Part shown: piece by piece, positions 1 through 47,702 of the stretch
Position numbering within the stretch: the first letter of the stretch is position 1
Layout: each line of letters starts with the position of its first letter
Assembly (NCBI GenBank): GCA_963788395.1
Contig: CAWBGV010000031.1
Coordinates: 73,094 to 137,093, forward strand
Source: Candidatus Doudnabacteria bacterium
GTDB lineage: Bacteria > Patescibacteriota > Doudnabacteria > UBA920
Direction: 5' to 3'
Length of the DNA stretch: 64,000 nucleotides
The notes under the pieces: model-generated
Database searches by the model: none
Told to the model about the DNA's origin: nothing
Seen by the model: the letters and a program-made list of their open reading frames with translations, nothing else
Program-made: the position numbers and the translations under genes

Positions 1-362
1 CCAAAAATGATCCGGCCGCGGGAGCGGCTAAAATTTCGATTGTCGAAAAACCCTGGGGGTTCGAAATCTGGCTGGCTTATACCGACCATTACGCCATGAA
101 ATTTTTAATAGTCAACCAGGGTAAGCGTTTTTCATTACAAAAACACCAGCAGAAGGAAGAAAGCTGGTTAATTCAGGCCGGCCACCCCGAAATCTTTTTG
201 AACAATCAAACAATTCAAGCCAGCCCCGGAGATGCATTTCATACGCCGGCCGGAACCGTGCATCGGGTAACCGCGGCTAAAGACGACGTGGTTATTTTAG
301 AAGTTTCAACTGCCGAACTTAACGATGTAGTCCGGTTGGAAGATGATTTTGGCCGCAATTAA
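1..362 (+). CDS. Cupin-domain protein (mannose-6-phosphate isomerase type II C-terminal-like), 5' end outside the window
   Basis: Frame 3 is open from position 3 and reads ...EKPWGFEIWLAYTDHYAMKFLIVNQGKRFSLQKHQQKEESW..HRV, the classic cupin WG.E.W / SLQ.H motif set. The ATG at 96 is internal, and the stop is at 360-362. Confidence 0.6.
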   Translation, partial: KNDPAAGAAKISIVEKPWGFEIWLAYTDHYAMKFLIVNQGKRFSLQKHQQKEESWLIQAGHPEIFLNNQTIQASPGDAFHTPAGTVHRVTAAKDDVVILEVSTAELNDVVRLEDDFGRN

Positions 363-1141
363 TCAAGATCAAGTTTTTGAACCTCGGTCAGTAATTTTTT
401 ATGCAACCCGCTGCCGCTGGCCAGCAGGTTTTTTGATTCTAAGGTAAAAGGCTGGCCGTCCCAGGTCGTGGCTTTGCCGCCGGCTTCGGTAACCACCAGG
501 CCGGCCGCGCCTACGTCCCAAATGTTGACGCTGGCCTGGATAAAATAATCGTACGTGCCGTCTGCCACCAAACAGGTTTCCCAGGCCGAGCTTCCCAGCG
601 TGCGGGTTTTTTTCATTTTGGTCACGAATACCGGCAGAATTGTGGCTGCAGATTTAGTATTTCTGCCCCAGCCTACGCCGCCGTAGGATTGCTCCAAAGC
701 AACTACAGAAGATGCCTTGATTTTTTGAGCATTTTTATAGGCGCCGCGGCCCCGAACCGCATGGTAGGTAACAGCGGTGGCCGGATTGTACACTACTCCC
801 ACGAGCGGTCCCTGATTATCCCACAGCGCAATGGAAATACAGCATAGGGGTAAGCCTTGGATAAAATTGGTCGTACCGTCGATCGGGTCAATAATCCAAA
901 ACCAGTCTTGGTCCTTTATGGATTTATCCCATCCGCCTTCTTCACCGATAATTTTGTGCGTGGGAAAGTGTTGCAAGATCCGCCGCCTGATCAATTTTTC
1001 TATCCGAACGTCAACTTCCGTGACTAAATCCCGCGGGTTGCCGCCTTTGGATTTTATGTGTTTGGGTTTTCCAAAATTTTGGCGGAATGTTTTGCCGCCT
1101 TCCCGGGCGGCTTTCAAGGCAACAGTCAGGTATTGGTCCAT
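359..1141 (-). CDS. Inositol monophosphatase family protein (SuhB/IMPase-like)
   Basis: 260 aa with the WIIDPIDGTTNF metal-binding motif and the second WDVGAAGLVV.EAGG motif typical of the IMPase/FIG family. Confidence 0.85.
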   Translation of the reverse strand: MDQYLTVALKAAREGGKTFRQNFGKPKHIKSKGGNPRDLVTEVDVRIEKLIRRRILQHFPTHKIIGEEGGWDKSIKDQDWFWIIDPIDGTTNFIQGLPLCCISIALWDNQGPLVGVVYNPATAVTYHAVRGRGAYKNAQKIKASSVVALEQSYGGVGWGRNTKSAATILPVFVTKMKKTRTLGSSAWETCLVADGTYDYFIQASVNIWDVGAAGLVVTEAGGKATTWDGQPFTLESKNLLASGSGLHKKLLTEVQKLDLD

Positions 1142-1262
1142 GAGGATTGGTGGTATAATTAGTCTAGTTTCGAAAACCGCTATAAATCGAATCTACGAAT
1201 AACTGCGAATCCACGACTAGAAAGCACTGGATTCGTAGATTCGATTTATATCCGCTCCCCCC

Positions 1263-2528
1263 ATGAGAATCATAGCAGACCTGCAAATTCATTCCAAATA
1301 TTCGCGCGCTTGTTCGCAAGATCTGGTCCCTAAAAATATTGCGGCCTGGGCGCACAAAAAAGGCATCGGGGTTATTGGTACCGGTGATTTTACGCATCCC
1401 CGCTGGCTGGCTCAGTTAAAAGAAGAACTGCAAGAAACTAAACCGGGCCTGTATCAATTAGTCGATAAAACTTCGCCGGTTGATTTTATGCTGACCGCGG
1501 AAGTATCGTCTATCTATAAACAGGATGATAAAGTCCGGCGCGTGCATAATATGATTTTCGCGCCCAACTTTGCGGCTGTTGATAGCATTGTCAGGGGATT
1601 GGAAAAGCAAAACGCCAATTTAAAAGCTGACGGCCGTCCTATAATGGGTATTCATTGCGATGAGCTGGTTAAAATCGTCAAAGAGGCGGACGAGCGCAAC
1701 GAAGTTATTCCCGCCCACGCCTGGACCCCGCACTTTGGATTATTTGGTTCACTATCGGGATTTAATACTATTGAGGAAGCGTTTGGCAGTCAGTCCAAGT
1801 ATATTTTTGCCATTGAAACGGGCCTGTCCAGCGACCCAAAAATGAACTGGCAAATTTCTAAGCTCGATAGCTTGTCGTTAGTTTCTAATTCCGACGCCCA
1901 CAGTCTGCGTAAAATCGGGCGCGAAGCCAATGCTTTTGAAATTGATCCCGAGCGACTGTCGTACAACGAAATTTTCAGAATTATTCGTGAAAAAAATCCG
2001 GCGGAATTTTTGTTCACCATCGAGTTTTTTCCGGAAGAAGGCAAGTACCATCTCGATGGCCATCGCGATTGTAAATTTTCTTGTCTGCCGGCGGAAACCA
2101 GGCGCCGGGGAGGGGTTTGCCCAGTATGTGGTAAAAAGTTATTGGTCGGTGTGTTAAGCCGGGTGGATGATTTGGCTGATAGAGAATGGGGGTTTGTGCC
2201 GCCGCGGGCGGTGCCGTTTAAAAACATTATTCCTTTAGAAGAAGTTATTGCCGACACGTTGGAGGTCGGGGCAGGCAGTAAAAAAGTGGCGGCACTCTAT
2301 GACAAAATGACCGTTCAAAAACCGGAGTTTGAAATTTTGCTTGATTTGCCTGAATCTGAACTTGCCACAATTGGTTCTTCTGACGTGGCGCGGGCAATTA
2401 TGCGGGTACGGGAAGGGAATGTCCACGTCGAAGGCGGCTACGACGGAGTCTTCGGCAAAATTCATATTTTTGAGGAAGCTGAACGGGAAAAATTATTCAA
2501 AAGGCCTAAACAAACGAGCCTTTTTTGA
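1263..2528 (+). CDS. Endonuclease Q-like PHP-domain nuclease (TIGR00375 family)
   Basis: 421 aa. ADLQIHSKYS, GTGD, RRVHN, PAHAWTPHFG, SNSDAHS, GKYHL, CPVCGKK zinc ribbon and a C-terminal KQTSLF all parallel Pyrococcus EndoQ as I recall it. Confidence 0.7.
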   Translation: MRIIADLQIHSKYSRACSQDLVPKNIAAWAHKKGIGVIGTGDFTHPRWLAQLKEELQETKPGLYQLVDKTSPVDFMLTAEVSSIYKQDDKVRRVHNMIFAPNFAAVDSIVRGLEKQNANLKADGRPIMGIHCDELVKIVKEADERNEVIPAHAWTPHFGLFGSLSGFNTIEEAFGSQSKYIFAIETGLSSDPKMNWQISKLDSLSLVSNSDAHSLRKIGREANAFEIDPERLSYNEIFRIIREKNPAEFLFTIEFFPEEGKYHLDGHRDCKFSCLPAETRRRGGVCPVCGKKLLVGVLSRVDDLADREWGFVPPRAVPFKNIIPLEEVIADTLEVGAGSKKVAALYDKMTVQKPEFEILLDLPESELATIGSSDVARAIMRVREGNVHVEGGYDGVFGKIHIFEEAEREKLFKRPKQTSLF

Positions 2529-2880: not shown

Positions 2881-4149
2881 CTATTTTTTATACCAGACGA
2901 TAAAATCGGAAACATTGGCCTCGGTCGGTCCGGTAAAAATTAATTCATGCCCGAGTTTTTCAAAAAAATCATAGCCGTCAAAATTGGCTAAGTATTCCTG
3001 TAAGGGAAGTTCCATGGAGGTGGCTCGGTAGAGCGAAGTAGTATCCAAAATTACGCCGGCGCAGTCGGAATTATCTAATCCATCCGAAGCCATGGCGGCT
3101 ACCACATCGTTTTCGCCAAGGTAACGAAAAGCTTTCATGCCAAAATAACAATTGCGGCCGCCTTTACCGCCGGGTTTATCAACAATTAAATTAATCTCAC
3201 TGCCGCCCAGTATTACCGTTCCCGGTTTGGCGGCGGTAGATATTTTTTTTAGCGTTTCATCGGCTGTTTCAAATAATTCCGCCGACAAAATACTTGACTC
3301 CAGGTCCAGGTCTTTGGCGCACTGGGCCATGGCCTCCAGTGCGATCATGTTGGAAACTATAGGCACATTATGGACACGTTCAAACAATTTTGGATCCTTA
3401 GGTGTTTCGGTCAGAAAAAATTTTCCCAAAGAGTACTTATCTATAATCGCTTGAGCATCGGCAATGGTTGAAGCATCTAAATAAGTCGGGCCGCTGTCTA
3501 CAAAGTGGTAATTATTACCGGCTACATCGGAAAAAATTAAGCTAATGACCGTAGCCGGGTAGAGCATTTTTGCCAAACCGCCGCCCTTAACCTGCGAAAG
3601 GTGTTTGCGAACCGTATTAAGGCCTTTAATATCATCGCCGGTTCTTAAATAATTTTGATACAACCGCACGCCCTGTTCGCGTTCATCGTCCGTCCAGCAC
3701 AACAGGGCGCTGCCGCCGCCGGAAATTAAATTAATCACCAGATCATCTTCGGTGATATCAGCAATCAGAGCAGCCATTTTGTTGGCTATAGCCACATTTT
3801 GCTCGGAGGGCAGCGGGTGTGTTCCAATAAACGTTTGGATAATTTTAGTCGGCGCTGCGGTAATGCCAATAGCTACGCCGGCGGTAATTTTGTCACCCAA
3901 AATATGTTCCAGGACCAGCGCCGCCCGTCCGGAGGCCTTGCCAAAGGCCAGGACAAAAAGGCGTTTAAACCGACTCAGGTCAAACGTTTCGCCTTTGACG
4001 GTCAGGGTCTTGCCATTGAGCTGGACTGAAGATTGCAGCACCATTTTGGTATCTATGGCGTTATACCCCGCTTCGACAATTTTTAAAACCGTTTCCCGTT
4101 CCGGCGTGGTGGCAACAGCTTGAATATTCTGTATCCAGGTTTTTAGCAT
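2881..4149 (-). CDS. Glycerate 2-kinase (MOFRL family, GckA/TtuD-like)
   Basis: 422 aa with the ISGGGSALL and GGKGGRN motifs and the DUF4147+MOFRL architecture. Confidence 0.8.
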   Translation of the reverse strand: MLKTWIQNIQAVATTPERETVLKIVEAGYNAIDTKMVLQSSVQLNGKTLTVKGETFDLSRFKRLFVLAFGKASGRAALVLEHILGDKITAGVAIGITAAPTKIIQTFIGTHPLPSEQNVAIANKMAALIADITEDDLVINLISGGGSALLCWTDDEREQGVRLYQNYLRTGDDIKGLNTVRKHLSQVKGGGLAKMLYPATVISLIFSDVAGNNYHFVDSGPTYLDASTIADAQAIIDKYSLGKFFLTETPKDPKLFERVHNVPIVSNMIALEAMAQCAKDLDLESSILSAELFETADETLKKISTAAKPGTVILGGSEINLIVDKPGGKGGRNCYFGMKAFRYLGENDVVAAMASDGLDNSDCAGVILDTTSLYRATSMELPLQEYLANFDGYDFFEKLGHELIFTGPTEANVSDFIVWYKK

Positions 4150-5202: not shown

Positions 5203-6463
<1,261 letters not shown>

Positions 6464-6866
6464 GTTCAAGAGTTTAATATACCTATATTTTAGCATTTTT
6501 TTATCTTTTCTTCAATAAATCTTCAGGTGGTATGTGCTATGGTGCTATTACTAAGTAAAATGTATGGAAATAAATTTTTTTAATAGACGGACTCAGATTT
6601 TTTTTGAGTCTTTAGAATTGTCCGTACGGCCAAGAGTAGTAGGCACTTTCGAACTCCTGGAACACTTTGGGAATGCATTAGGCATGCCGCACAGTAAGGC
6701 CTTAGGGAGGGGATGATTTGAGCTGCGAATTGTAGGCGTGATCAATATTCGTTTTATATATACATTTTTTGGAGGAAAAATTTGGATACTGCACGGATTC
6801 GTTAAAAAAACAAACCGCACCGCGGATCGGGACACTGCATATGCAGGGAACCAACTCAAAATGCTC

Positions 6867-23100: not shown

Positions 23101-24690
23101 ATGCCGAAGAAAGTTCAAACCATAATTGAATATAAGCGTGCGTTAATTTATTGCCGGGTTTCCAGTGAGCGGCAGGTTAACGAAGGCCATGGTCTTGATA
23201 GCCAAGAGCAGCGGTGTATTCGCCGTGCTTCAGATATGGGTTTGGAAGTGGCAAAAGTGTTTCGGGACGAGGGAGTATCCGGTGGTTTGTTTGACCGGCC
23301 GGCAATGCAGCTGCTTATAAAGTATCTGGATGCACGTCTACACGAAAATTTTATTATTATCTTTGACGACTTAAGCCGTTTTGCAAGGGATGTGCAAGTT
23401 CACATACAACTTAAAAGCGAACTCATTTCCAGAGGCGCAAAACTGGAGTGTTTAAATTTAAAATTGGAAGATACGGCAGAGAGTGAGCTGGTAGAAATTA
23501 TTTCCGCAGCTACGGCGCAGTATCAACGCAAGACCAATAAAAGGCAAGTTATTCAAAAAATGAAAGCCCGGCTGGAAATGGGCTATTGGACATTTTGTCC
23601 GCCACCAGGCTTAAAGTTCTGCAAAGACGCGGCCAAGGGGCAAATTTTGCGCCCCCATGCGCCACAATCTGTAATCTTTAAGGCTGCAATAGAGAAATAC
23701 CGCGACTTTGAGTTAAATACGCTTGAGGAGATTCAGCAGTTTATAATTGCGCAATATCGGCTTAACGGGCTTAATAAATCTATTTCTATAAGTGGCGTTA
23801 AAAGGCTGCTTACCAATGTTTTATATGCCGGCTGTGTGGAATACGAGCCGTGGGGTATTCCGCTTGTAAAAAATGTCCATGAAGGCTTTATTTCCTACGA
23901 AACTTTTCTTGCAGTGCAGGATCGGCAAAATAATGCGAGTAAGCCAAGAATCCGTAAAGACCAGAACATGGATTTTCCTTTACGTAATTTATGTTATTTG
24001 CGAAAGTTGTAAGCATCCTTTTACCGCGGCGTGGTTTAAGGGTAGAAAAGAAATTTATGGATATTATTTATGTAAGCAGCAAGGTTGCTCCCTTAAAAAT
24101 AAAACAATTAATGCGGATATTGTTGAAGCTGACTTTGTTAAATTGCTAAAACGAGTGTCACCAAGCCCGGAAGTTCTAAAATTGGCTGAAAAAGTTTTGG
24201 TAGATTTATGGGAAAGCCAAAGGAAAAACGAAGGACAGGTCAAAGCGGCATTTTAGCGCAGCTGAGTAAACTAGAAACTCAAAATAAAACTTTGGTGGAA
24301 AGAATTGCAAAAGCTACCGCTGACGGCTTGGTTGCTGAATACGAAAAGACTATTGCGCAAAACGTGGCAGAAATTAAAAACCTGCAAAAAGAACTCGATA
24401 AAACAAAATACTCCCAGGACGGGTTTCAAACCGCAGCGGGAGCAGTATTCGAATATCTTTCAAAACCGTTAGAACAGTGGCAAACCCGCGACTACGCAGG
24501 CAAACGGCTGTTACTCGGTATGTATTTTGAGCAGAAAGTTGCTTATAACCGTGAATTTGGTTTTCAAACCGCTCAAATTCCTTTTGTCCTTGCGACAATC
24601 CAGCAAGAACACGTGTCTAAAAATCATCTGGTGGACCGGACGGGAATTGCACCGCAAACCATGATGTCAAGCTGTGGTCCGTCACTGTGA
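23101..24690 (+). CDS. Large serine recombinase (resolvase/invertase catalytic domain + recombinase domain + zinc ribbon + coiled coil), two frameshifts
   Basis: ORF 23101..24012 has ALIYCRVSSERQ...GHGLDSQ (catalytic Ser), ORF 23873..24256 has CESCKHPF...YGYYLCKQQGC (zinc ribbon), and ORF 24208..24690 has the coiled-coil tail. Together they make about 530 aa. Breaks are at T runs (about 23975-23990, and TTTT at 24251-24254). Confidence 0.85.
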
Positions 24691-30174: not shown

Positions 30175-31610
30175 TTATATAGGAAATTCAATCGTAAAAA
30201 CCGTACCTTGGCCACGCGAACTTTTGACTGTTATAGTTCCTTGCAATTCTTTTTCCACGATGGACTTAGTTGTTGCTAAGCCCAGGCCAGTGCCCCGCTC
30301 AATGGTTTTTGTAGAAAAAAAAGTTTCGAATATTTGGCTGAGATGCTCTGGTAAAATTCCTATTCCCTCGTCTGTCACTTCCAAAATCGCTATACCGTCT
30401 TTAGACTTCAGTTTAATCAGAATACTTTTATGATCCCGAGTAACTTCGTCGTACGCATCAATCGCATTCGAAAGTAAATTTGTAATAACCTGATAAAATT
30501 TAAGAGGGTTGCCAAAGTAATCAACCTGTTGCGTCTCCAAAAAGACGACCTCAATTTGTTGGGTGAGGGTTTTATAATGAAACAGCTGTATTACCTGATA
30601 AATTTCCTGATTAAGCGAAAATAAAAATTTGACGTTTTGATGATTAAGCTGTTTGCGCACCGCCTCAATAAATTCCTGCATTCGTTTACTGATGATTACC
30701 GCGCGTTCAAGTTCAGCTTGGGTGGTTGCAATATCGGGATGATCGGTTTTTAACTTTTTTATATTGAGAGACAGGGCGGTGGGGTATTCATCAAGTCGTG
30801 GAACGCTCCGCTGGCTAGTCGGCCGAACTCCGCGAACCGATCTAATTCCGTAACCTTTTCTAATTGAGCCTGTTTTAGGGCTTGCGTGCGTTCTGCAATT
30901 TTAATTTCCAGCAAGTCCCGTTCGTTTTTCAGTTCTTGTTCCGATGTTTGGGCGCGGCGAAGCGATTTAACTATTTCACGATTGGCGAGCCAAGACACCA
31001 CGGTTAAGAGTATAAAAATAGCAGCAAATTCCAGCGTATCCAACACTTCGAGCGGTTTGTTTTTCCAGTGCAAAATGGGTAATGAAGGTGCAGCGCTTTC
31101 TTTTAGGCCGGCAGGGATTAAAACCGTGATTATAACTAAGGTGATAATAAAGCTAAAGCCAGTCCCGATTAAAATACTCGACATAGTGATAACTAAGGCG
31201 TCGGCCAGTAAGGCTGTGGGTTCGTCGGCTCCCCAGATACATTCTGTGTAAATAGTAGCAGCCAAAAACAGAACAATAAAAATGTAAGCCGAAAATTTAT
31301 AATACCCTTTGCGTGATAGGTAATAAAGGGCAACAAATAAGAACACTAAAGCGCAAAAGATTAACGGCGGAACTCCTCGATAATCAGTTTGCAGATGGTC
31401 GTGATTATAAAAAATAACTGCCGTGAGCAGGCCTACTATCAGCAAATTTCCGCAAAGTAAAACATTTAAAATGAGTTCTCTGCGGCGTTCGTCTTCTAGG
31501 TGGGCGCGGGGACGCAAAAAATGTTGATATAAAAAATATACCCCTTTCTTGCTCAAGCCGTGCAATCGGTGGAGACTGGAAAAAGAATTTTCCAAAGAAC
31601 CGGTGCCCAT
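30175..31610 (-). CDS. Sensor histidine kinase (membrane domain + HisKA + HATPase_c), 1-nt frameshift at the H-box
   Basis: The N-terminal ORF (30759..31610) has 5-6 transmembrane helices, a coiled coil and ...SGAFHDLMNTP. A frame change at a GGGG run (30781-30784) continues TALSLNIKKL... into ORF 30175..30681, which has the N box LLSNAIDAY and the G boxes GTGLGLATTKSIV. Confidence 0.8.
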
Positions 31611-32740: not shown

Positions 32741-33412
32741 TTAACCCTCATCGATCTTATAACCGCGTCCGGACACGGTATGAATCAGCTTCACGCTGTG
32801 GCCGCGGTCTATTTTACGCCGCAAATTCAGAATGTGGGTTTCTATGGTATTCGAAAAGGGGTCGGCATTCATATCCCAGACATGTTCCATAATCAGCCCG
32901 CGAGAGACTACATTACCTTGGCGTCTCATTAAAAATTCCAATAATGCCAGTTCTTTTCTGGTTAAGTGAATTTCTTTATCGCCGCGCTTCACTAAATGTT
33001 TTTTGCTGTCGAGGGTCAGATCAGAAACTAACAAGACTTCCTTTTCCATTCCCGATGGCCGTCTCAGGATGGCATTGATCCGGGCCAATAGTTCGTCAAA
33101 CTGAAATGGTTTGGTTATGTAGTCGTCGGCTCCTTCGTTCAGGACGGTTATTTTTTGACGCACTTCAGCCTGCACAGAAAGCATAATAATAGGCATCGTT
33201 TTGCCGGCTTGCCGCAGCTCCCGGCAAACTTCTGTGCCGGTTTTTTTGGGAAGTATATTATCCAAAATCACCAGATCGTAAGTGTGAATTTTTCCCAAGA
33301 TTAATCCATACTCCCCATCGGTGGCCAGATCTACGGTGAAGACCTCGGATTCTAAAGCATTTTTAAGATGCAGGCCTAAATCAATATCGTCTTCAATGAG
33401 TAATAAGCGCAT
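32741..33412 (-). CDS. Response regulator, OmpR/PhoB winged-helix family
   Basis: The receiver domain has the acidic DD pocket (LLIEDDIDL), phospho-acceptor Asp (LVILDNILP) and conserved T and K. The C-terminal trans_reg_C has ...VWDMNADPFSNTIETHILNLRRKI. Confidence 0.9.
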   Translation of the reverse strand: MRLLLIEDDIDLGLHLKNALESEVFTVDLATDGEYGLILGKIHTYDLVILDNILPKKTGTEVCRELRQAGKTMPIIMLSVQAEVRQKITVLNEGADDYITKPFQFDELLARINAILRRPSGMEKEVLLVSDLTLDSKKHLVKRGDKEIHLTRKELALLEFLMRRQGNVVSRGLIMEHVWDMNADPFSNTIETHILNLRRKIDRGHSVKLIHTVSGRGYKIDEG

Positions 33413-36173: not shown

Positions 36174-36315
36174 AGACCTTTTGTTTCTTAATGGTTATTT
36201 ATTTAATTATACCACTCAATATCTTATAATAGCCAATTTTAAAGAAATTTTTTATTTTTCTGTTTAAGTTGAGCGCATTTCCGGCAAATATTTTCTTTTG
36301 CTATACTAAGTGAGT

Positions 36316-37775
36316 ATGAAAACCGCGCTTTTGTCTGTGTATAACAAAGAAGGAATCGTAGAGTTTGGACGGTCTTTAAAGGACTTGGGGTGGAATATTA
36401 TTGCCAGCGGCGGCACGGCAAAAGTGCTGGTCGAGGCTGGTCTGGAAGTGACGGACACCGCCGCCTTAGCCGGCCAAGCTATACTGGGCCATCGGGTGGT
36501 GACGCTTTCGCGGGAAATTCACGCGGCTTTATTGGCGACCGATTCTCCTGAAGATCAAAAAGAACTAGCCGAATTAGATATTCCAAGAATAGATTTAGTT
36601 TGTGTAGATCTCTATCCGCTGGCGGAAGAAATTTCCCGTCCCGGCTCGACCGCCGCTTCGGTGATTGAAAAAACGGATATTGGCGGTCCGACTATGCTGC
36701 GCAGCGCGGCCAAAGGACGGCGGATAGTCATTTGCGATCCGGCCGACCGGACGGCAGTTATCGAGTGGTTAAAGAACGGATCGCCGGAAGCAGAAAAATT
36801 TATTTCCGCTTTGGTGGCTAAAGCAGAATATTATATTGCCGATTATTGTTTGCTATCCGCTCGGTATCATAGTGCTGGTCTGTATGACGGATTGCTGGGC
36901 GAGCAGGTTCAAGTCTGTGGGTATGGAGAAAATGCCTGGCAGCAACCCGCGGGTTTGTTTAAAAATCGAAGCGTTGACGAACTGGCTTTGAATGATTTCC
37001 AAGTAGCAGTTGGGGCAGCCCCCAGTTACAATAATTGGTGTGATGTTGACCGGCTGTTGCAGACTATAACTCATATAGCAGCTGCTTTTGATGTTCATTA
37101 CGGCGCAGTTCCTTGGATTGCGGTGGGGGTAAACACGGCAATGCTTGCGGCGCTGCTGTCTCGAAAACACCTCAGGAAGCCGTAACAAAAATGCTGGAAG
37201 GAGACTTACGGGCAATTTTTGGGGGACTGCTGATTGTTAATTTTGAGCTCACCGACCAATTGGCCGAAATTTTATTGACTAATAAAATGCCTACCGGCCA
37301 GCGCCGGCTGTTGGATGGTATTATAGCGCCGGCAATTACCGAAAGCGCCGTAACTATGCTGAAACGAAAGGGCGACAAATGCCGCATTTTTATAAATCCG
37401 GCTTTGGCGCGCCTTAATCGTTCATCATTAGACTCTGCCATGCGCTTTCGCTACGTGCGTGGCGGATTTTTGCGTCAGCCAAACTACACTTTTATTTTTG
37501 ATTTTTATGACGGGCAAATTCAGAACAATAAAACTGTGGATGAAAATCAAGAACAAGACTTGTTGTTGGCTTGGGCCATAGGGTCGACTTCGAACAGTAA
37601 TACCGTGACCTTGGTTAAAGATGGGATGCTAATTGGTAACGGCGTCGGCCAGCAAGACCGGGTCGGCGGCTGCGAGCTGGCCATTAAGCGCGCTGCTTCC
37701 AGCGGACACAACACGCATAAAGCCGCGGCCTATAGCGACAGCTTTTTTCCGTTCGTCGACGGTCAAAAGTTCTAA
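36316..37775 (+). CDS. purH: Bifunctional AICAR transformylase / IMP cyclohydrolase, 1-nt frameshift at a GGGGG run
   Basis: The MGS-like N-terminus is MKTALLSVYNKEGIVEFGRSLKDLGWNIIASGGTAKVL. After GGGGG at 37125-37129 the frame changes into GKHGNACGAAV...QDRVGGCELAIKRA...AYSDSFFPFVDG, the AICARFT domain. Confidence 0.9.
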
Positions 37776-37920
37776 TTGAACATGGTATCCAGACTATTTT
37801 GGCTACCAGTGGTTCAGTCCGCGATTCAGAAATTAAAGATTACTGCGACCAACAAAACGTTGCGCTCTATTTAATTCCCGACAGAGCCGGGCGAGGTTTC
37901 TTTGGACACTAGTCACAAAC

Positions 37921-37955
37921 ACAGGGGACCCCTTCAAAGGGGTCCCTGTGTTTTT
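37921..37955 (+). terminator. Palindromic terminator after purH (sibling of the 13278 hairpin)
   Basis: ACAGGGGACCCC-TTCAAA-GGGGTCCCTGT followed by GTTTTT. Confidence 0.65.
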
Positions 37956-37975
37956 AGATCTGTTTGAGGATTTCT

Positions 37976-38461
37976 TTATTTTTGGACGTCCAGTTGGGCG
38001 GTACCGCCGCCATCGCAAGTGATGTTGTACTTGCCGAGCGTAGAAGCGGTAGCAATAGCAAAGCTGTAGGGTTTGAGGATATAGGTTTGTGATTGGATCC
38101 TTATGGTATCAGTGGCGTTATCGCGATTATCTAACATAAATTGGTCGCCTTGTCGTATGGCCAGCGTGCCGGGATCGCCATGGCAACTGGAAAACTGAAT
38201 CCGATAGACATATTTTTTGAGGGCCGCGTTGTAAGCAATATTGCTGCTGCTGGAACCATGAAGCGCGGAAGCCGGTGTAGAAGTCGGCGTGGAGGTGGCT
38301 TGACCCGCGCCGGGATTAGCGGAAAGTACGGGGCTGCGTCCTGAACCTAAGCTTCCTGCTGACTCGTTATTCGAGCGGGAAAGTAGGTACCAGGAAGCGC
38401 CCGCAATGACTACTATAGCCACAATTCCAATTATAACCGTTGTTTTGTTACTCATATGCAT
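37976..38461 (-). CDS. Membrane-anchored secreted protein (hypothetical)
   Basis: 161 aa: an N-terminal transmembrane anchor, a Ser/Thr/Gly linker, then a small Cys-containing domain (CHGDPGTL...NITCDGG). Confidence 0.4.
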   Translation of the reverse strand: MHMSNKTTVIIGIVAIVVIAGASWYLLSRSNNESAGSLGSGRSPVLSANPGAGQATSTPTSTPASALHGSSSSNIAYNAALKKYVYRIQFSSCHGDPGTLAIRQGDQFMLDNRDNATDTIRIQSQTYILKPYSFAIATASTLGKYNITCDGGGTAQLDVQK

Positions 38462-38515
38462 AAAGGGTTTAATTATTTTCCCTTCTAATAAGACGAAAAT
38501 AGAGGCTAAAACTGT

Positions 38516-39901
38516 CTAAAGTTCTCCCAGCTTATTGGCTAAGCCAATATAGTTTTCCGGGGTGACTTTTTTTAATTCCGCTTTTACTGCCTCGGAAATT
38601 TCCAATCCGTCTATGAAGGTGCGTATATCTTCGATTGTCAGTTGTTTGCCCCGCGTCAGTTCTTTGAGTTTTTCATATGGCATAGCCAAGCCTTCCCGTC
38701 GTAAAATCGTCTGGATAGCTTCGGCAATAACCTCGGGATGGCGGCGTAAATCTTCGGCTGTTTTTATTTGATTGACAGATATTCTCCCTAGTTGATTATT
38801 GAGATACGCAAAACCAATAAGGCAGTAGCCAAACGCGCTTCCGATATTCCTTAAAACGGTTGAATCCGAAAGGTCTCTTTGGAGCCGAGAAACCGGCAAT
38901 TTTGCCCCGAAGTAATTAAACAGGGCGTTGGCCATCCCTAAATTGCCTTCACTATTTTCCAAAAACCAAGGATTAATTTTATGAGGCATGGTTGAAGAGC
39001 CGACTTCGCCTTCGACCGGCTTTTGGGTAATCCAGTCGTCACTAATATAGCGCCAGACGTCCTGATTGAAATCTATCAAAATGACATTGATTCTCCGCAT
39101 GATATCGAATAGCTCAACATAGCTGTCGTGAGGTTCAATTTGGGTAGTGAGCAAATTTGGCTCCAGGTTGACGTTTCGTTGAGAATTGAGCTGCTTGATA
39201 AAATTTTTAGAAAAATTTATCCAATCTACGCCGGGGTAAGCTGCCGTTAGTGCATTATAATTGCCGGTAGCGCCATTTAATTTTGCTTGCAGCTGATGCT
39301 CGGTCAAAAGCGTGCATTGACGATTAAGCCGGGCATGGAAAATTTTAAATTCTTTTCCAAACGTGGTAGGCGAAGCTGGTTGGCCATGAGTGCGGGCCAG
39401 CATGGGGATGTTTTTACTTTCCAGAGCCAAGGCTCCAATTTTATCTATTAGATTTTGCAGCGCGGGCAGATATACGTCCCGCAGACTCTCGCTGATCATT
39501 AAGGCATAAGCTATGTTGCTGGCGTCTTCCGAGGTCAGCCCAAAATGCACCCATTCTAAACAGTCTTGCAGCGACGTTACAGCCAGCTTATCTTTTATAT
39601 AATACTCAATGGCCTTAAAATCGTGGTTGGTGGCTTTAATGTTTTTGTAGCCTTTGAGTTCAATATCGCTGATAATTTGCGCGTCAGCGTCGGTCAAAAG
39701 ATACATGCTCCTGACAGAACTTTTCTCTTCGTCAGAAAATTGCCGAAGCTTGGTTGCTTGCGACTCGCTTAAAGCGATTAAATATTCGCCTTCCATAATA
39801 ATTTTGTATTTCATGGAAGCCGCTTCGCTAAAATAGGGAACGAGCGGGGCGGTATATTTTTGGTAGCGGCCGTCGATGGGGGAGATTGAAGAGAGAGGCA
39901 T
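38516..39901 (-). CDS. purB: Adenylosuccinate lyase
   Basis: MPLSSISPIDGRYQ... N-terminus, about 461 aa fumarase/ASL family. The ATG at 39899-39901 is the more likely start than the TTG four codons upstream. Confidence 0.9.
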   Translation of the reverse strand: MPLSSISPIDGRYQKYTAPLVPYFSEAASMKYKIIMEGEYLIALSESQATKLRQFSDEEKSSVRSMYLLTDADAQIISDIELKGYKNIKATNHDFKAIEYYIKDKLAVTSLQDCLEWVHFGLTSEDASNIAYALMISESLRDVYLPALQNLIDKIGALALESKNIPMLARTHGQPASPTTFGKEFKIFHARLNRQCTLLTEHQLQAKLNGATGNYNALTAAYPGVDWINFSKNFIKQLNSQRNVNLEPNLLTTQIEPHDSYVELFDIMRRINVILIDFNQDVWRYISDDWITQKPVEGEVGSSTMPHKINPWFLENSEGNLGMANALFNYFGAKLPVSRLQRDLSDSTVLRNIGSAFGYCLIGFAYLNNQLGRISVNQIKTAEDLRRHPEVIAEAIQTILRREGLAMPYEKLKELTRGKQLTIEDIRTFIDGLEISEAVKAELKKVTPENYIGLANKLGEL

Positions 39902-39902
39902 A

Positions 39903-40867
39903 TTACAATCCAAACGGGATTAGGTTATTTTTGATTCTGTCCGCAATCGGCGTTTCTAAATCGGTTTCGAACTTATTGCCGGTAATCTGTTCGTAAATCC
40001 GGATGTAGCGGGAAGAGAGTTCCGCGACCATGTCGGGCGGGGCAGGAGGTAAAACTGGATCGTTATAGGGATCGGAATTTTCTTTAAACCATAACCGGAG
40101 GAATTCTTTATCAAAATTTTCCGGTTCCAGTCCTTGGTCGATGCGCTGTTGGTAGGAATCTGCTTGCCAATAACGGGATGAGTCGGAGTATGGATTTCGT
40201 CTATTAATATTAGTTTGTCGTTTTGATCCAGGCCAAATTCGTATTTAGTGTCTACTAAGATAAGTCCGCGCTGCAGGGCAATTTGTTGGCCGCGCTTGAA
40301 CAGCTCGAGCGTTGTGTCCGCCAGTTCCAGCCATAGTTGTTCCGGGACGATACGTTCTTCTATGATTTCCCGGCTGGTCAGCGGCCGGTCGTGTTCTTCC
40401 GATTTCGTGGTAGGAGTGAGCACGGGATGTTCCAGTTTTTGGTTTTTGCGCATACCGTCTGGCAATTTAAAATCCCCAAAATCCCGCAGTCCTTTTTGGT
40501 AAAGGGTCCACAATGAGGTTCCGGTTACGCCGGTCATGTATCCGCGGACAACCATTTCAAGAGGGATGGTTTTGCATTTTTTGACAACGACCACATTCGG
40601 GTCCGGCGAACTGATAATGTGGTTTTGGATAATGTCTTTCGTTTGCTCAAACCAAAACCGGCTGGTTTGGGTTAAGACCTGTCCTTTAAAAGGGATTAAT
40701 GCCAGGTTACGGTCAAACGCCGAATATCTATCGGTTGCGACCAAAATAATTTTATCGTCCTGAGTATAAATATCCCGCACTTTCCCCTGGCGGCGTTCGC
40801 CAAGGTTTTTTAAATTCGTTTTTTCCAAAACTCGATCCAGATGCTTTTCTACTATAGTTTTATCCAT
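39903..40867 (-). CDS. purC: SAICAR synthetase (long, eukaryote-like form), 1-nt frameshift near 40180-40190
   Basis: GKVRDIY...IILVATDRYSAFD, then after ...DEIHTP the frame changes into DSSRYWQADSYQQRIDQGLEPENFDKEFLRLWFKENSDPYNDPVLPPAPPDMVAELSSRYIRIYEQITG. The stop at 39903-39905 lies 1 nt from the purB start. Confidence 0.85.
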
Positions 40868-40905
40868 AATTTTTAATTTGGCATTTGTTATTTGAAATTT
40901 TAAAC

Positions 40906-42024
40906 TTATTCCCCCGGCGGTCCCAAAATTATATTCTCCGGCCCAAACACAACTTCGCGCTTGCCTTCCGTTATTTCGCCTGCGTCCATCATATCATACC
41001 CCGCCTGCGTACCTAAGGCAATAATTTGTTCAACTTGGTCAGCGGGAGCGTATATATAGTAGCCGGCGCCCCAGTTAAATGTCTTGAGGCAATCTTTTAA
41101 CGGTACGCCGAGTTGTTCTTTAAAATATTCCATAAGTGGCGGGACGCGGAGCCAGGAGTGGATTTTGTAGGTATAGCTGCGCTTATCAAATGCAATTTTC
41201 CCTACGCCGTCGCCGGTGCCGGGGAGCAGGGCATGAATGTTAATGTGATGTCCAAGTAAAGTCTCGATGAGTGCCACATATGAGCGTGTCGGAATAAGGG
41301 CTTCTTGGCCCAGTGTGCGCCCGTTAGGCAGTTTGGTTAAAAAAGCGTCCGGAAGTTCCATGGCCTTTTTAATAACTAGCGATACGCCGTTGGCGTGCAG
41401 CCCAGAAGAGGCGACGGCAATAATATGGTCACCGGCCTGGAGTTTGCGGCCGGTAATCAGCCGTTCTTTGGGGGCGATAATACCTGTGGTGCAGCCGCTG
41501 AGCGTGGCGATAGTTTTGACTGGCGGCGCGGGGTGGACTACATATTTTACCGATGCGGATTCACCCGCGGGCATAGCCATACCCACTTCTTCGCAGATTT
41601 TTAAAAATCCTGCGGCCAGGTCTTGTGCTCGCTTGGGGTCGGAGTACCAACTGCTGTCGGAGGCTTCAATCTGGTCGGTAAAAACCACCGGCAACGCGCC
41701 TTGGGCGATTACGTCGTTTACGGTCATTAAGGCGGTATCAATAGCAATGGTATCGTAATAAGTCTTACCAATGCCTTCGTTTTCATACATCCATTCGGCA
41801 ATCCAGTTTTTATTGCCCAGGTCCTCCTGGGTCTTGCACCAAATATGATTTTGCCGCCCGCGGTATTCAAACACCGCGCCATGGGCATGCGTGGCTTCGG
41901 TGTTAATAAAAACTTCCCGCTTTTCCGGAAAGTGCAAGGTCTGCTTGCCGGCCTCGATCATAGCCATTTTAAAAGGCTCCATTTGGGAATAATCGACACC
42001 GGATTTGGCGTATTCAGAGGGCAT
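40906..42024 (-). CDS. purM: Phosphoribosylformylglycinamidine cyclo-ligase (AIR synthase, PurM-type)
   Basis: 372 aa: the N-terminal GVDY...ALMTVNDVIAQGALPVVFTD and C-terminal ...IAVASSGLHANGVSLV motifs of the PurM superfamily. Confidence 0.7.
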   Translation of the reverse strand: MPSEYAKSGVDYSQMEPFKMAMIEAGKQTLHFPEKREVFINTEATHAHGAVFEYRGRQNHIWCKTQEDLGNKNWIAEWMYENEGIGKTYYDTIAIDTALMTVNDVIAQGALPVVFTDQIEASDSSWYSDPKRAQDLAAGFLKICEEVGMAMPAGESASVKYVVHPAPPVKTIATLSGCTTGIIAPKERLITGRKLQAGDHIIAVASSGLHANGVSLVIKKAMELPDAFLTKLPNGRTLGQEALIPTRSYVALIETLLGHHINIHALLPGTGDGVGKIAFDKRSYTYKIHSWLRVPPLMEYFKEQLGVPLKDCLKTFNWGAGYYIYAPADQVEQIIALGTQAGYDMMDAGEITEGKREVVFGPENIILGPPGE

Positions 42025-42048
42025 AATGGTAATGACAAATTTTAAATT

Positions 42049-42564
42049 TCAAATGTCAAAAGATTCATAACCGTTCTTTTTTAGCTGCGACGCTTTTTGT
42101 TTTACCGAGGTTTCCATGGTTTTTTTGTAGGCAGCAAGCTTTTTGTTTAGTCTTGCGTCAAACGCCGCCAGAATTCCCACTGCCAGTAGCCCCGCGTTTT
42201 TTGCTGCGTTAATGGCCACGGTCGCTACCGGAATTCCGGGCGGCATTTGGGCAATAGAAAGCAGAGAGTCGAGACCTTTTAGAGTTTTGGTTTCAACAGG
42301 GACGCCAATCACCGGTAAAGTCGTAATCGCCGCCGTCATCCCGGGCAAGTGCGCTGCGCCCCCGGCGCCGGCAATAATTACTTTTAGTCCGCGGTTCGCG
42401 GCCGTCGACGCATATTCAAACATCCGTTTGGGCGTCCGGTGAGCGGAAACAATGGTAATTTCATACGGCACTTTAAATTCTTCCAAGATTTCTGCCGCCT
42501 GCTTCATAACCGGCAGGTCGCTGTCGGAGCCCATGATAATACCTACAAAGATTTTTTTTGACAT
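42049..42564 (-). CDS. purE: N5-carboxyaminoimidazole ribonucleotide mutase
   Basis: 171 aa: [13 protein letters not shown]...[15 protein letters not shown]. Confidence 0.9.
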
Positions 42565-42570
42565 AGCTGT

Positions 42571-43794
42571 TTAAATTTCTATCAGCTTTCTAATTTCCTC
42601 TCCTGTCCGCAGCGCGCTTTCAATATCGTCGGCGACGATGGTAATATGTCCCATTTTTCGTTCCACTCTTGTTTCTATTTTACCATAAATATGAACAAAA
42701 ATCTGCTCTACCGATGGTGCGGGAATTGCTGTTGAAAGATGATTTTTGGTTGCGAATTCCGTCCAATCCTCGTCAAAGCCTTCTAAGAGCGCCGGGCCGT
42801 TGCGCTCACCTAAAATATTAACCATGACCGCGGCCGGCACGGTCATGTCGGTGGGTCCCAAATCCATGCCGGTAATCGCCCGAATGTGCTGTTCAAACTG
42901 CGAAGTTTGGTACCCTTCGATGGTAAGATGGCCGGCATTATGGACGCGCGGAGCGATTTCGTTGATCATGACCACGCTACCTGTTTTATCCGGAAGATCA
43001 TTGGGATCTAGGGTCGGATACAATGGCTCGGAATAGAACATTTCTATACAAAAGACGCCCACACCTTTGAGTTGTTCCAGAGCCCGAATCGCTAGGTCAT
43101 GTGCCTGTTTTCTGGCCGCGTCGTCAATTCGCGCCGGGGCGATGACGGTGTGACAAATGTGATTTTGGTGAATAGTTTCAAATACGGGATAGACCGCAAT
43201 GGTTCCATCCACACTGCGCGCGGCCACAACAGATAGTTCTTTTTCAAAAACCACGAATTTTTCCACATATAGTTCGCGCCCCTGTAATTTTTTCATCGCC
43301 AGATCAATTCCTGTTTCATCTTCAATCAGTGCATTGCCTCTGCCATCGTAAGCTTCATACTTAGCTTTCAGGACAATCGGATAATCAAATTCCGCCGCCG
43401 CTTTAATAATCTCGTCTTTCGACGCCGCTTCCATAAAATCCGCGACGGTAATATGCGCTTTGCGCAGGAATTGTTTTTGGCCAAATTTATTTTTGATAAT
43501 ACTAAGCGTTTGCGGCGAGGGATGAATGATTTTCCCTTGCGCTTGCAGCTCTTCTAAGATAGTGCTGTTGGCCGACTCAATCTCGAACGTTAAAAAATCA
43601 CTTGCTCGCGCCAGCTCTTTTATTTTGTCTGGGTCTGTAAAATTACCAAGCAGGTGCCGGTCGGCCACTTGGGCCGCGGGAGAGTTTGGCGTGGGGTCGA
43701 GCACAGTCACGGTATACCCCAGCTTATGGGCCGCCTGGGCCAGCATTCTGCCCAATTGTCCGCCGCCGACGATGCCGATGGTTTTATTTGACAT
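42571..43794 (-). CDS. purK: N5-carboxyaminoimidazole ribonucleotide synthetase (ATP-grasp)
   Basis: 407 aa: GIVGGGQLGRML N-terminus and an ATP-grasp core. Confidence 0.9.
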   Translation of the reverse strand: MSNKTIGIVGGGQLGRMLAQAAHKLGYTVTVLDPTPNSPAAQVADRHLLGNFTDPDKIKELARASDFLTFEIESANSTILEELQAQGKIIHPSPQTLSIIKNKFGQKQFLRKAHITVADFMEAASKDEIIKAAAEFDYPIVLKAKYEAYDGRGNALIEDETGIDLAMKKLQGRELYVEKFVVFEKELSVVAARSVDGTIAVYPVFETIHQNHICHTVIAPARIDDAARKQAHDLAIRALEQLKGVGVFCIEMFYSEPLYPTLDPNDLPDKTGSVVMINEIAPRVHNAGHLTIEGYQTSQFEQHIRAITGMDLGPTDMTVPAAVMVNILGERNGPALLEGFDEDWTEFATKNHLSTAIPAPSVEQIFVHIYGKIETRVERKMGHITIVADDIESALRTGEEIRKLIEI

Positions 43795-43922
43795 ACATGG
43801 TTAGTAGAGGGTTATAAGTTATAGCCGCCAGTATAGGTATAGGGTATAAGTGATAAGGTTTTTTACTTACAACTCATGACTTAAACCCAGACTGGCCGCC
43901 ACAACTAATACCCTATTACTAT

Positions 43923-45194
43923 TCAGCTTAATGATTTCTTCCCAATATCCGTTCGAAATTGCATCCCCTCAAAATGTATCAGTTTAACTGCACCATACGC
44001 TTTATCCAAGGCTTCCTGCAAGCTGTCTCCAATTGCCGTTACTCCCAATACTCGTCCGCCATTGGTCACAAGCTTACCATCTTTTATGACGGTACCGGCG
44101 TGAAAAATTATGATATCGGGCAAACTTTCCGCGGCCGCAATGCCGGTAATCTCTTTCCCTTTTTCGTATTTGCCGGGGTATCCTCCACTGGCTAAAACGA
44201 TGCAGCAGGCGTATTTGGGCTCCCATTCAATTTTGATTTTAAGCAATGTTTGCTGAGCGCAGGCTTCGAACACGTCCAGCAGGTCCGTTTTCAGCAGCCG
44301 CAGGTAACTTTGGCACTCGGGGTCGCCAAAGCGGGCGTTAAACTCGATGACCGAAGGCCCGCCTCCGGTCATCATTAGTCCGGGATAGAGCAGCCCGCTA
44401 AACGGACTGCCAAGTTTTTTTAACCCTTCCAGGGCGCGGTAGACTATATGGTTTTTTACTTCGAGCATATCGTCTTGGGTAATCCACGGCAGGGGAGCAA
44501 TCGTACCCATGCCGCCCGTGTTAGGGCCCCGGTCGCCGTCGAAAGCGCGCTTGTGGTCTTGTGACGGCGGAAACATCTGGAAACTTTTGCCGTCACAAAT
44601 CGCGTGAGTAGAAAATTCTCGGCCGGCTAAATATTCTTCTATTACCACTTCACTGCCGGCTTCACCGTGGATTTTATTGAGCATACTGTCGCGAAGAGCT
44701 TGCTCGGCTTCATCTAAAGTTTGGCAAACACTCACACCCTTACCCAAAGCAAGTCCTGAGGCTTTAATGACCGTGGGCAAGCCGGAGCTTTTAATGTACT
44801 CAAGCGCCTGGTTATAGTCGGTAAAAGTTTTATATTTGGCCGTGGGAATGTCGGCCTGATCCATAAAATGTTTGGCAAACGATTTGGAAGCTTCGATTTT
44901 GGCAGCCGCTTTGGTTGGTCCAAAAATCTTAAGGCCTTTCTCTAAAAAAGCATCAGTGATCCCCAAGGCCAGGGGATCATCAGGCCCGACAACGGTTACA
45001 TCGATATTTTTTTTCAGCGCGAATTGAACCAGGCCGCCAACATCTGTTGCCGGAATCGCGACCGCTTCCGCCAGTGCGGCCGTGCCCATGTTCCCGGGCG
45101 CTATGTATATTTTTTGCACGCGCGGTGACTGCGCCAGCTTCCAAACCAACGCGTGCTCCCGACCGCCGCTGCCAATAACCAGAATTTTTTTCAT
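43923..45194 (-). CDS. purD: Phosphoribosylamine-glycine ligase
   Basis: 423 aa: MKKILVIGSGGREHALVWKL and the ATP-grasp motifs. Confidence 0.9.
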   Translation of the reverse strand: MKKILVIGSGGREHALVWKLAQSPRVQKIYIAPGNMGTAALAEAVAIPATDVGGLVQFALKKNIDVTVVGPDDPLALGITDAFLEKGLKIFGPTKAAAKIEASKSFAKHFMDQADIPTAKYKTFTDYNQALEYIKSSGLPTVIKASGLALGKGVSVCQTLDEAEQALRDSMLNKIHGEAGSEVVIEEYLAGREFSTHAICDGKSFQMFPPSQDHKRAFDGDRGPNTGGMGTIAPLPWITQDDMLEVKNHIVYRALEGLKKLGSPFSGLLYPGLMMTGGGPSVIEFNARFGDPECQSYLRLLKTDLLDVFEACAQQTLLKIKIEWEPKYACCIVLASGGYPGKYEKGKEITGIAAAESLPDIIIFHAGTVIKDGKLVTNGGRVLGVTAIGDSLQEALDKAYGAVKLIHFEGMQFRTDIGKKSLS

Positions 45195-45251
45195 AAAATG
45201 AAGTGTCTAAGATTTTAACGATAGTTAAAATCTTAGACAGATTGATATATG

Positions 45252-45848
45252 TCAGGCCGTTAGTTTTTTAAGCGCTTTGGTATAGAGTTGGTTTTCTTTA
45301 GCTTTTAATCTTGTGTAGAGCGAGTCTACGGTATCGCCAGGCAAGATAGCTTCAAATGTGCGCCCAAGTACCGGGCCGAAATCAAAATCTAAAGTCAAAA
45401 AATGAATCGACGATCCGGCATAGGTGGCGCCCTGGTCCAAAAAATTTTGGACAGCTTTGGCTGCAAGCATGCCTTGATTCCACAGCCCGTCAGTGCCGTC
45501 GGGGTTTTTTACCGTACCATCTTGGGTATCGGGAACAAGGCCCGGGTGGAGGTTTAAAATTTTGTTTGGAAATTTCAGAATTACGTCGTCGGGAATAAAT
45601 TGCTTCCATCCCGCCAGGCAAATAAAGTCAGGGTTTAAGTTTTGCAATAGCGGTAACAACGCTGCTTTTGTGGGGCAAATTTCAATCGGTATGGCATGTC
45701 GCTTTGCCCGCTCCAAACCCGGTGCAGCGGGAGTGTCCGAGACAACGGCCGAAATTCGGGCTTTAATTTTGCCAGCGGCTACAGCGTCTATAATTGCCTG
45801 GAGGTTAGTTCCGATTCCGGTATTAGAAATGAGGACGACAATGTTCAT
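45252..45848 (-). CDS. purN: Phosphoribosylglycinamide formyltransferase
   Basis: 198 aa: MNIVVLISNTGIGTNLQAIIDA..., HPGLVP and the formyl-transferase fold. Confidence 0.85.
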   Translation of the reverse strand: MNIVVLISNTGIGTNLQAIIDAVAAGKIKARISAVVSDTPAAPGLERAKRHAIPIEICPTKAALLPLLQNLNPDFICLAGWKQFIPDDVILKFPNKILNLHPGLVPDTQDGTVKNPDGTDGLWNQGMLAAKAVQNFLDQGATYAGSSIHFLTLDFDFGPVLGRTFEAILPGDTVDSLYTRLKAKENQLYTKALKKLTA

Positions 45849-45850
45849 AA

Positions 45851-47266: not shown

Positions 47267-47283
47267 GTAGTATGTATCGGGTA

Positions 47284-47673
47284 TTATGTATTATGTATAC
47301 TGCGGTTGGTAACGGTTTTCATCAATCCGTGAATAAGCTTACTCACTACTATTGTCTGATTTGCTGTCTCTAAAAAAACTTCCTTTGTTACATAACCCAG
47401 ATCTTTCGCAATCAGTAACTGATTTTGTACTTCTGTCAGTGAGCCGAGCGCGATAGCATAAAATTGCATTTTTTCTTTTGCAAAATTTCGGCTGAAACCC
47501 TCGGCAATATTGGAAGAAATTGAGACAACAGCGCGGCAAATCTGTGAGATTAAACGAAATATTTCTTCTTTTGGAAAAGATTTGGTTATTTTATAGACCA
47601 TCAAGACTAATTTATGAGCCTCTTTCCAAGCCTTAAGATCAGTAAAAGATTTGATTTTAGTATCCATACCCAT
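47284..47673 (-). CDS. Four-helix-bundle protein (TIGR02436 / bAvd-like, 'rRNA intervening-sequence protein' family) inserted within the pur operon
   Basis: 129 aa: ...EIFRLISQICRAVVSISSNIAEGFSRNF.... It is flanked by 13-bp inverted repeats GTATTATGTATTA (47281-47293) and TAATACATAATAC (47691-47703). Confidence 0.7.
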   Translation of the reverse strand: MGMDTKIKSFTDLKAWKEAHKLVLMVYKITKSFPKEEIFRLISQICRAVVSISSNIAEGFSRNFAKEKMQFYAIALGSLTEVQNQLLIAKDLGYVTKEVFLETANQTIVVSKLIHGLMKTVTNRSIHNT

Positions 47674-47702
47674 ACATTATACACGATACTTAATACATAA
47701 TA

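Follow-up and report, generated by a model that had tools for sequence, protein, structure and literature searches.

The 64,000-nt stretch of Candidatus Doudnabacteria DNA shown above (contig CAWBGV010000031.1; "the window" hereafter means this whole stretch) carries a gene that we read as a stand-alone endonuclease Q (EndoQ) of a Doudnabacteria-like lineage (Patescibacteria, or candidate phyla radiation, CPR), the predicted product of which would dock to the bacterial sliding clamp (beta clamp, DnaN) through its C-terminal pentapeptide QTSLF. We assign this reading, which is built on sequence comparison and a predicted fold, a probability of roughly 0.8. Exactly one open reading frame (ORF) occupies positions 1263..2528 of the plus strand; it encodes 421 amino acids, beginning with MRIIADLQIHSKYSRA and ending with EREKLFKRPKQTSLF (KRPKQTSLF) directly before the stop codon. 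Residue numbers refer to this 421-residue window protein unless marked Pfu, for EndoQ of Pyrococcus furiosus (PfuEndoQ). The gene and its predicted parts are as follows.

1263..2528, plus strand: endoQ-like gene, 421 codons and stop (ORF listing, matches to PfuEndoQ and TIGR00375, predicted fold)
1263..2030, plus strand: PHP catalytic domain, about residues 1-256 (residue mapping onto PfuEndoQ)
1284..1286, plus strand: codon 8, CAA (Gln), replacing the first His of the PHP H-x-H metal motif (PfuEndoQ alignment)
2031..2228, plus strand: zinc-binding domain, about residues 257-322, with predicted ligands H267, C270, C286 and C289 (aligned to Pfu)
2229..2495, plus strand: C-terminal helical domain, about residues 323-411, including K340 and the GGYDGVFG loop (aligned to Pfu 304-391; helices and strands of the model)
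2496..2510, plus strand: short basic linker FKRPK, residues 412-416 (C-terminal to the part that aligns with the crystallised Pfu core)
2511..2525, plus strand: pentapeptide QTSLF, residues 417-421, putative beta-clamp-binding motif (conservation, model, precedent in PMC4858679)

Family, fold and active site

When the window protein was compared by phmmer with all sequences of the Protein Data Bank (PDB), only P. furiosus EndoQ was retrieved (5zb8 and 7k30-33; E about 1e-46, residues 3-411), and the best match, 5zb8, aligned window residues 3-411 with Pfu residues 3-391 (E 6.6e-46). Identity to PfuEndoQ is about 28%. The NCBIfam model TIGR00375, a hypothetical equivalog, was matched end to end (model positions 2-374, E 8.7e-47). 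A local copy of Pfam gave a sub-threshold PHP_C match only, with no PHP family above threshold; relatives carry the precomputed Pfam family PF27218 and the NCBI name "endonuclease Q family protein". We also obtained an AlphaFold2 model from 38 sequences (predicted template modelling score, pTM, 0.81), for which PfuEndoQ (5zb8/7k30) was the only full-length structural match in Foldseek (template modelling score, TM, 0.79-0.84), other PHP enzymes, among them histidinol phosphatase, Pol X or Pol III PHP, RNase AM and YcdX, matching the PHP domain alone (TM 0.30-0.36, 12-15% identity). The three-domain EndoQ architecture, consisting of an N-terminal PHP domain, a zinc-binding domain and, at the C-terminus, a helical domain, is present in both the alignment and the model. 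These results bear out the initial annotation, which had placed the protein in EndoQ and not in another PHP family.

To describe the predicted active site, the defining metal-site and pocket residues were taken from PMC5961232 and mapped onto the window protein by the PfuEndoQ alignment. The two metals of PfuEndoQ are bound by His8, His10, Glu76, His84, His139 and Asp193 (PMC5961232). Five of these six ligands are present in the window protein as H10, E80, H95, H152 and D211 (plus H213), the sixth position being Q8, and all six of the His, Glu and Asp residues just named are invariant across the window protein and 121 relatives. The deaminated-base pocket of PfuEndoQ is formed by His139, Thr142, Glu167, Leu168 (main chain), Gly169, Leu170, Asn191 and Asp193 (PMC5961232), and H152, T155, E185, G187, L188, N209 and D211 are identical to their Pfu counterparts and invariant in the 121 relatives. 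Pfu Leu168, a position that contributes main-chain atoms only, is Thr186 in the window protein.

Position 8 is Gln in 120 of the 121 close relatives and His in 123 of 125 deeper representatives, and on this comparison H8Q is a change private to the clade of the window protein. Q8 is always paired with H157, the counterpart of Pfu W144; because H157 also occurs together with H8, it is older than Q8, and no specific co-substitution compensating for H8Q was identified among the relatives. W144 was dropped as a defining wedge residue, as co-crystal work on EndoQ with DNA, in the summary given in PMC11354406, reports base flipping without a side-chain wedge. The predicted zinc site has the form HxxC...CxxC, with H267, C270, C286 and C289 at the positions of Pfu C249, C252, C268 and C271, and His as first ligand, found in 121 of 125 bacterial-branch representatives, is the norm for this branch as judged by alignment. 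K340 (Pfu K320) is conserved. Several motifs had been quoted when the gene was first annotated: SNSDAHS (residues 208-214), GKYHL (within EEGKYHL, 258-264) and CPVCG (286-290) are indeed present, but ADLQIH, given as a metal-binding His motif, reads Q-x-H instead of His-x-His, with Gln8 at the position of Pfu His8, and the CxxC described upstream of CPVCG is not there, the ligands being H267-x-x-C270 and C286-x-x-C289 with His in the place of Pfu Cys249.

The C-terminal pentapeptide in relatives, fusions and archaea

A Q-x-x-L-F sequence was found at the homologous site in 117 of 120 close relatives, nearly always as the last five residues, and did not occur once outside that site in the 48.5k residues of these proteins. 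Across the 122 stand-alone proteins that have Q..LF as their ending, M, T, K, S or A is found at position 2 and mainly S or G at position 3, so that Q, L and F are fixed and positions 2 and 3 variable. The motif is also detected at the end of the EndoQ module in 76 of 148 deeper representatives, where 0.004 would be expected per protein, even where this end is internal to a longer chain. In the model of the window protein, the tail is unstructured after a short helix, and residues 418-421 have a predicted local distance difference test score (pLDDT) below 50. Altogether, conservation and model indicate that the tail is a selected, unstructured short motif. The initial annotation had named two outcomes that would speak against it, a best match outside EndoQ and loss of the C-terminal motif in orthologues, and neither occurred.

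Of the best 150 representatives, 109 reach a length of 900 amino acids or more and consist of an EndoQ module fused to a UvrD/PcrA helicase (PF00580 and PF13361). In these EndoQ-UvrD/PcrA fusions (about 1,000-1,250 amino acids), the N-terminal module shares 45-52% identity and its catalytic residues with the window protein, and many of them keep a Q..LF at the module end that is homologous to the C-terminus of the window protein. Unlike the window protein, which has no helicase domain and no helicase gene nearby, they continue into a C-terminal superfamily 1 (SF1) helicase and end in a second motif with a Q-L-[SD]-L-F logo, which lies within the last 12 residues of 67 of 125 fusions (0.001 expected). 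Leu dominates at position 2 of the motif (46/70) only at these helicase-fusion C-termini. Under the strict pattern, both the internal Q..LF (about residues 417-430) and the terminal QL[SD]LF are present in 33 of the 125 fusions (P0128-P0271); the supplementary table of the 2016 study of archaeal EndoQ gives one motif position per protein (PMC4858679).

A comparison across domains of life was possible in the sub-branch of the relative L022. Its protein (L022 2407-3672) is a bacterial-type EndoQ, 51% identical to the window protein, that ends in QKSLDEFF, and its gene adjoins an Orc1/Cdc6 gene on its contig. The sub-branch, common to Micrarchaeota (DPANN archaea) and Patescibacteria, was sampled as the 120 closest relatives of L022 (P0272-P0391), at least 56% identical to the L022 protein. 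The tails have the spacing of the PCNA-interacting protein (PIP) box in 37 cases and that of the clamp motif in 79. Where a tail-bearing protein had a source name, all nine archaeal ones showed PIP spacing (QKSLDEFF, QSSLSKFL, QSSLGDF) and all three bacterial ones clamp-motif spacing (QxxLF). This split by host domain indicates that the tail follows the clamp of the host. Together with QL[SD]LF at the fusion C-termini, it strengthens the beta-clamp reading of the tail that had been suggested at the outset.

The tails of characterised archaeal EndoQs fit the same picture in position though not in length. The archaeal types are P. furiosus PF1551 (PDB 5ZB8, 7K30-33) and Thermococcus kodakarensis TK0887, and PCNA binds the T. 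kodakarensis enzyme through a C-terminal PIP box with a dissociation constant (KD) of 55 nM and stimulates its cleavage (PMC4858679). With the window protein they share the three-domain layout, the lesion pocket, five of six metal ligands and a clamp-adaptor peptide (a putative one in the window protein) at the extreme C-terminus after a ...KPK-like linker. When the archaeal tails, read from the primers in PMC4858679, are set against that of the window protein (...KPK-QRTLLQYI and ...KPK-QRSITEFL versus ...KRPK-QTSLF), the Gln falls at the equivalent position. Archaeal EndoQ does not itself end in QTSLF, as had been supposed: its tails are the eight-residue PIP boxes QRSITEFL for the T. kodakarensis enzyme and QRTLLQYI for that of P. 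furiosus (PMC4858679). Counting from the Gln, the window protein ends after five residues and does not form the eight-residue PIP box (Qxxhxxaa, aromatics at positions 7 and 8). It further differs from PfuEndoQ in having Gln for H8, His for the Cys that is the first zinc ligand and His for W144, and in its host, which is bacterial and mesophilic-looking.

Bacterial EndoQ homologues bearing beta-clamp consensus motifs at their C-termini were already described by Shiraishi et al. 2016 (PMC4858679). Their Suppl. Fig. S1 includes stand-alone CPR entries (Parcubacteria KKP93828, QKSLF; Daviesbacteria, QVGLF; Woesebacteria, QQALF) and also Dictyoglomus, Geobacter and forms of about 1,000-1,240 amino acids ending in QL[SD]LF, and the table accepts variants with a residue other than Leu at position 2. 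The window protein resembles the stand-alone bacterial EndoQs listed there in size (about 405-465 amino acids) and in its terminal motif; it differs in belonging to a Doudnabacteria-like subclade with the private H8Q. A functional analogy can be drawn with EndoMS/NucS, which binds the clamp through a C-terminal peptide and, as proposed for EndoQ, is a repair endonuclease activated by the replication clamp. The analogy goes no further, EndoMS/NucS having an unrelated fold, mismatches as substrate and double-strand cuts as product. Its clamp link in archaea and in bacteria is indicated by the titles of two 2018 Nucleic Acids Research papers in the references of PMC8438529.

The initial annotation had called EndoQ rare in bacteria, which it is not. 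A search with the window protein gave at least 8,000 clusters at 90% identity. The top 120 of these are 67-77% identical to it and, where named, are called "endonuclease Q family protein" and assigned to Candidatus Doudnabacteria or Patescibacteria; a sequence identical to the window protein is already present in NCBI and ENA. An exhaustive search of representatives yielded 3,491 clusters at 50% identity with E 1e-3 or better. Two short peptide patterns were enough to find a relative in at least 596 GTDB species representatives, among them numerous lineages of Patescibacteria as well as Desulfobacterota, Myxococcota (Sorangium), Binatia, Latescibacterota, Methylomirabilota, Chloroflexota and Clostridia. 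This corrects the picture in the literature of an enzyme of "limited groups" of bacteria, EndoQ being abundant in Patescibacteria and present in many phyla; in the searchable literature we found no paper linking EndoQ with Patescibacteria. Some mid-length homologues (P0124, P0127, P0135, P0164, P0192) are interrupted by LAGLIDADG inteins, which sit at three catalytic sites: in window numbering, these are near residues 152-157 (ligand His152), near 189 (pocket G187-L188-S189) and near 215 (SNSDAHS).

Proposed mechanism and rival explanations

In the mechanism that we propose, the PHP two-metal nuclease, the His-Cys3 zinc domain and the helical DNA-binding domain would be arranged as in PfuEndoQ, as sequence and predicted fold suggest. 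By analogy with characterised homologues, uracil, hypoxanthine or an abasic sugar would be flipped into the pocket and the phosphodiester bond immediately 5' of the lesion cut, leaving a nick. The EndoQ of Bacillus pumilus is active on deoxyuridine (dU), deoxyinosine (dI) and abasic (apurinic/apyrimidinic, AP) sites (Shiraishi et al. 2017, as cited in PMC5961232 and PMC8438529). On the comparative evidence, QTSLF, carried on a short basic unstructured tether, very probably hooks the window EndoQ to the bacterial sliding clamp by docking into the hydrophobic cleft of DnaN. Docking would recruit the enzyme to clamp-loaded DNA at or behind replication forks and probably stimulate it there, as PCNA does with archaeal EndoQ. 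The nick would then be processed by strand displacement or 5'-flap removal, followed by ligation. The UvrD-type fusions of many other bacteria point to helicase-assisted removal of the nicked strand; here, the helicase, polymerase or flap nuclease that processes the nick would be encoded separately.

Several observations weigh against this reading. The TIGR00375 score of 160.3 bits is about half the curated cutoff of 326.6 and falls short of it, which makes the window protein, on profile comparison, a clear homologue outside the curated equivalog set. H8Q may alter catalysis or metal preference: His8 of PfuEndoQ is a Zn ligand, and in the H8A mutant only about half of the activity is left (PMC5961232). 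The basic residues R251 and K276, with which Pfu contacts DNA, are D269 and L294 in the window protein. Position 2 of the motif is Thr and not the consensus Leu, so that the strict QL[SD]LF pattern does not match, and the affinity for the clamp may be modest. Neither a conserved repair partner nor an adjoining UvrD-like gene was found near endoQ, the neighbours being glycolytic or gluconeogenic, and in the searchable literature we found no paper in which any bacterial EndoQ was tested with DnaN.

The low profile score and the Pfam result, limited to PHP_C below threshold, are what could be expected of a generic PHP phosphoesterase (histidinol-phosphatase-like, Pol X or Pol III PHP, RNase AM-like) with no more than a likeness to EndoQ. 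We give this identity next to no chance: the alignment to PfuEndoQ runs from end to end and spans the EndoQ-specific zinc and helical domains, the TM values of 0.79-0.84 for EndoQ compare with about 0.3 for other PHP proteins, and the relatives have both PF27218 and the EndoQ family name. The PDB alignment and the Foldseek result effectively refute it. The substitutions bear on another possibility, which we consider unlikely, namely that the protein is an EndoQ-family nuclease with a still functional clamp tail, the chemistry of which has been shifted by H8Q (together with H157, D269 and L294). Such an enzyme might use another metal or a one-metal site and act on a narrower or altered set of substrates, such as AP sites alone, or nicks and flaps. 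The replacement of a Zn ligand, the mutation of which halves activity in Pfu, by a Gln nearly fixed in the close relatives but not in the deeper ones would agree with this, as would the loss of R251 and K276. However, all base-reading residues of the pocket are invariant and would drift freely if AP sites alone were cut; Pfu G169A loses dI cleavage and retains AP cleavage (PMC5961232), so the pocket is specific for the base, and the amide oxygen of Gln can still ligate metal.

The tail itself could be something other than a clamp ligand, such as a conserved C-terminus with a structural role, a tag for degradation or a peptide that docks another partner, for instance a helicase or polymerase. 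The position 2 residue in the stand-alone clade, which is not Leu, would be compatible with this, and the internal copy of the motif at the fusion junction might be taken for a structural part of the module. We nevertheless hold it to be very improbable, because the motif falls beyond the stretch that aligns with the crystallised Pfu core and is modelled with low confidence, because Q, L and F alone are fixed, which is the signature of the Q-L-[SD]-L-F clamp motif, and because the fusions end in a further copy of their own, a canonical QLSLF or QLDLF. In addition, the PIP-spaced tails of the archaeal members of one sub-branch are hard to explain unless the partner is a sliding clamp.

A clamp-tethered EndoQ is not a new kind of system, as the family, its activity in a bacterium and the idea of a clamp motif are already published. 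What we add to the 2016 paper are refinements: the bacterial scale of the family, H8Q, the internal motif retained in fusions, and the switching between PIP and clamp motifs within one branch. Should DnaN be bound by the tail, EndoQ would be one more lesion-specific nuclease tied to the bacterial replication clamp, mirroring the archaeal PCNA-EndoQ pair, and a clear case of a repair enzyme that swaps its clamp adaptor between domains of life. H8Q flags a clade with an altered metal ligand. A wider proposal, possible but doubtful, is that the C-terminal peptide of EndoQ is an exchangeable adaptor at a fixed position (...KPK-Q...), repeatedly retuned between a PCNA type (Q-x-x-L-x-x-aromatic) and a beta-clamp type as the gene moved between archaea and bacteria, also inside the single sub-branch of Micrarchaeota and Patescibacteria, that the internal and terminal motifs of the fusions would let one polypeptide engage both protomers of the beta dimer, and that these reduced genomes repair deaminated bases mainly through the clamp-tethered stand-alone enzymes of the H8Q clade.

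Genomic context and other features of the window

The endoQ gene is monocistronic in the window. Its neighbours and the elements of its upstream region are listed below.

359..1141, minus strand: inositol-monophosphatase (IMPase) gene, divergent neighbour of endoQ
1151..1159, plus strand: extended -10-like element TGGTATAAT, putative promoter upstream of endoQ (read by eye)
1181..1250, no strand assigned: perfect 20-nt inverted repeat (arms 1181-1200 and 1231-1250) between putative promoter and start codon (repeat search)
2881..4149, minus strand: glycerate-kinase-like gene, convergent neighbour of endoQ

The order IMPase, endoQ, pyruvate kinase, phosphoenolpyruvate (PEP) synthase is kept across the clade of the window protein, which argues for a vertically inherited housekeeping gene. 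The extended -10-like element is also found upstream of endoQ in the relatives L006, L007 and L014; a two-hexamer consensus promoter scan gave no plus-strand site upstream of endoQ, and no obvious Shine-Dalgarno sequence precedes its start codon. The inverted repeat, which has a 30-nt spacer and ends 12 nt before the start codon, could be a leader hairpin or an operator. The leader inverted repeats of L006, L007 and L014 differ from it in sequence, that of L006 having the same core CGAATCTACGAAT. A Pfam scan that covered most window ORFs of about 120 amino acids or more showed neither uracil-DNA glycosylase (UDG) nor DnaN. The initial annotation was thus right that no UDG is visible here, but the 64 kb make up only a small fraction of a genome, and nothing follows from the absence for the organism as a whole. 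Neither Rfam nor tRNA scans gave a match in the window, and the Doudnabacteria-like lineage was read from the names of relatives and from synteny.

Further along, enolase (5203-6496, minus strand) is encoded by two separate ORFs, at 5618-6496 and 5203-5604, with the junction near 5604-5620. They become a single intact gene for about 430 amino acids if one T is taken out of the run GTTAAAAATTTT at about 5620, and the relatives L003 and L014 have intact enolase genes of 420-427 amino acids. The split is a frameshift, an assembly error or a pseudogene. Between about 18000 and 24012, the GC content falls to 33-39%, compared with about 46% elsewhere, and the ORFs are short and have no Pfam match; this stretch adjoins a serine recombinase gene (23101-24012, Resolvase and Recombinase domains), and the two may form an integrated mobile element. 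At 30175-31610 (minus strand), a 168-amino-acid ORF in which the HATPase_c domain of a histidine kinase is the only domain follows a 283-amino-acid ORF with no Pfam match. The pair adjoins a response regulator gene (32741-33412) and may represent a sensor kinase that has been split or has diverged. Genomes of Patescibacteria/CPR are generally described as lacking many biosynthetic pathways, and the window holds a near-complete de novo purine cluster (36310-51420), unusual for a Patescibacteria/CPR-like genome, in which a short PurH-like gene is followed by PurB, C, M, E, K, D, N, F, Q and L. Between purF and purQ lies an ORF of the 23S rRNA-intervening-sequence family (PF05635, bAvd-like; 47284-47673, minus strand).

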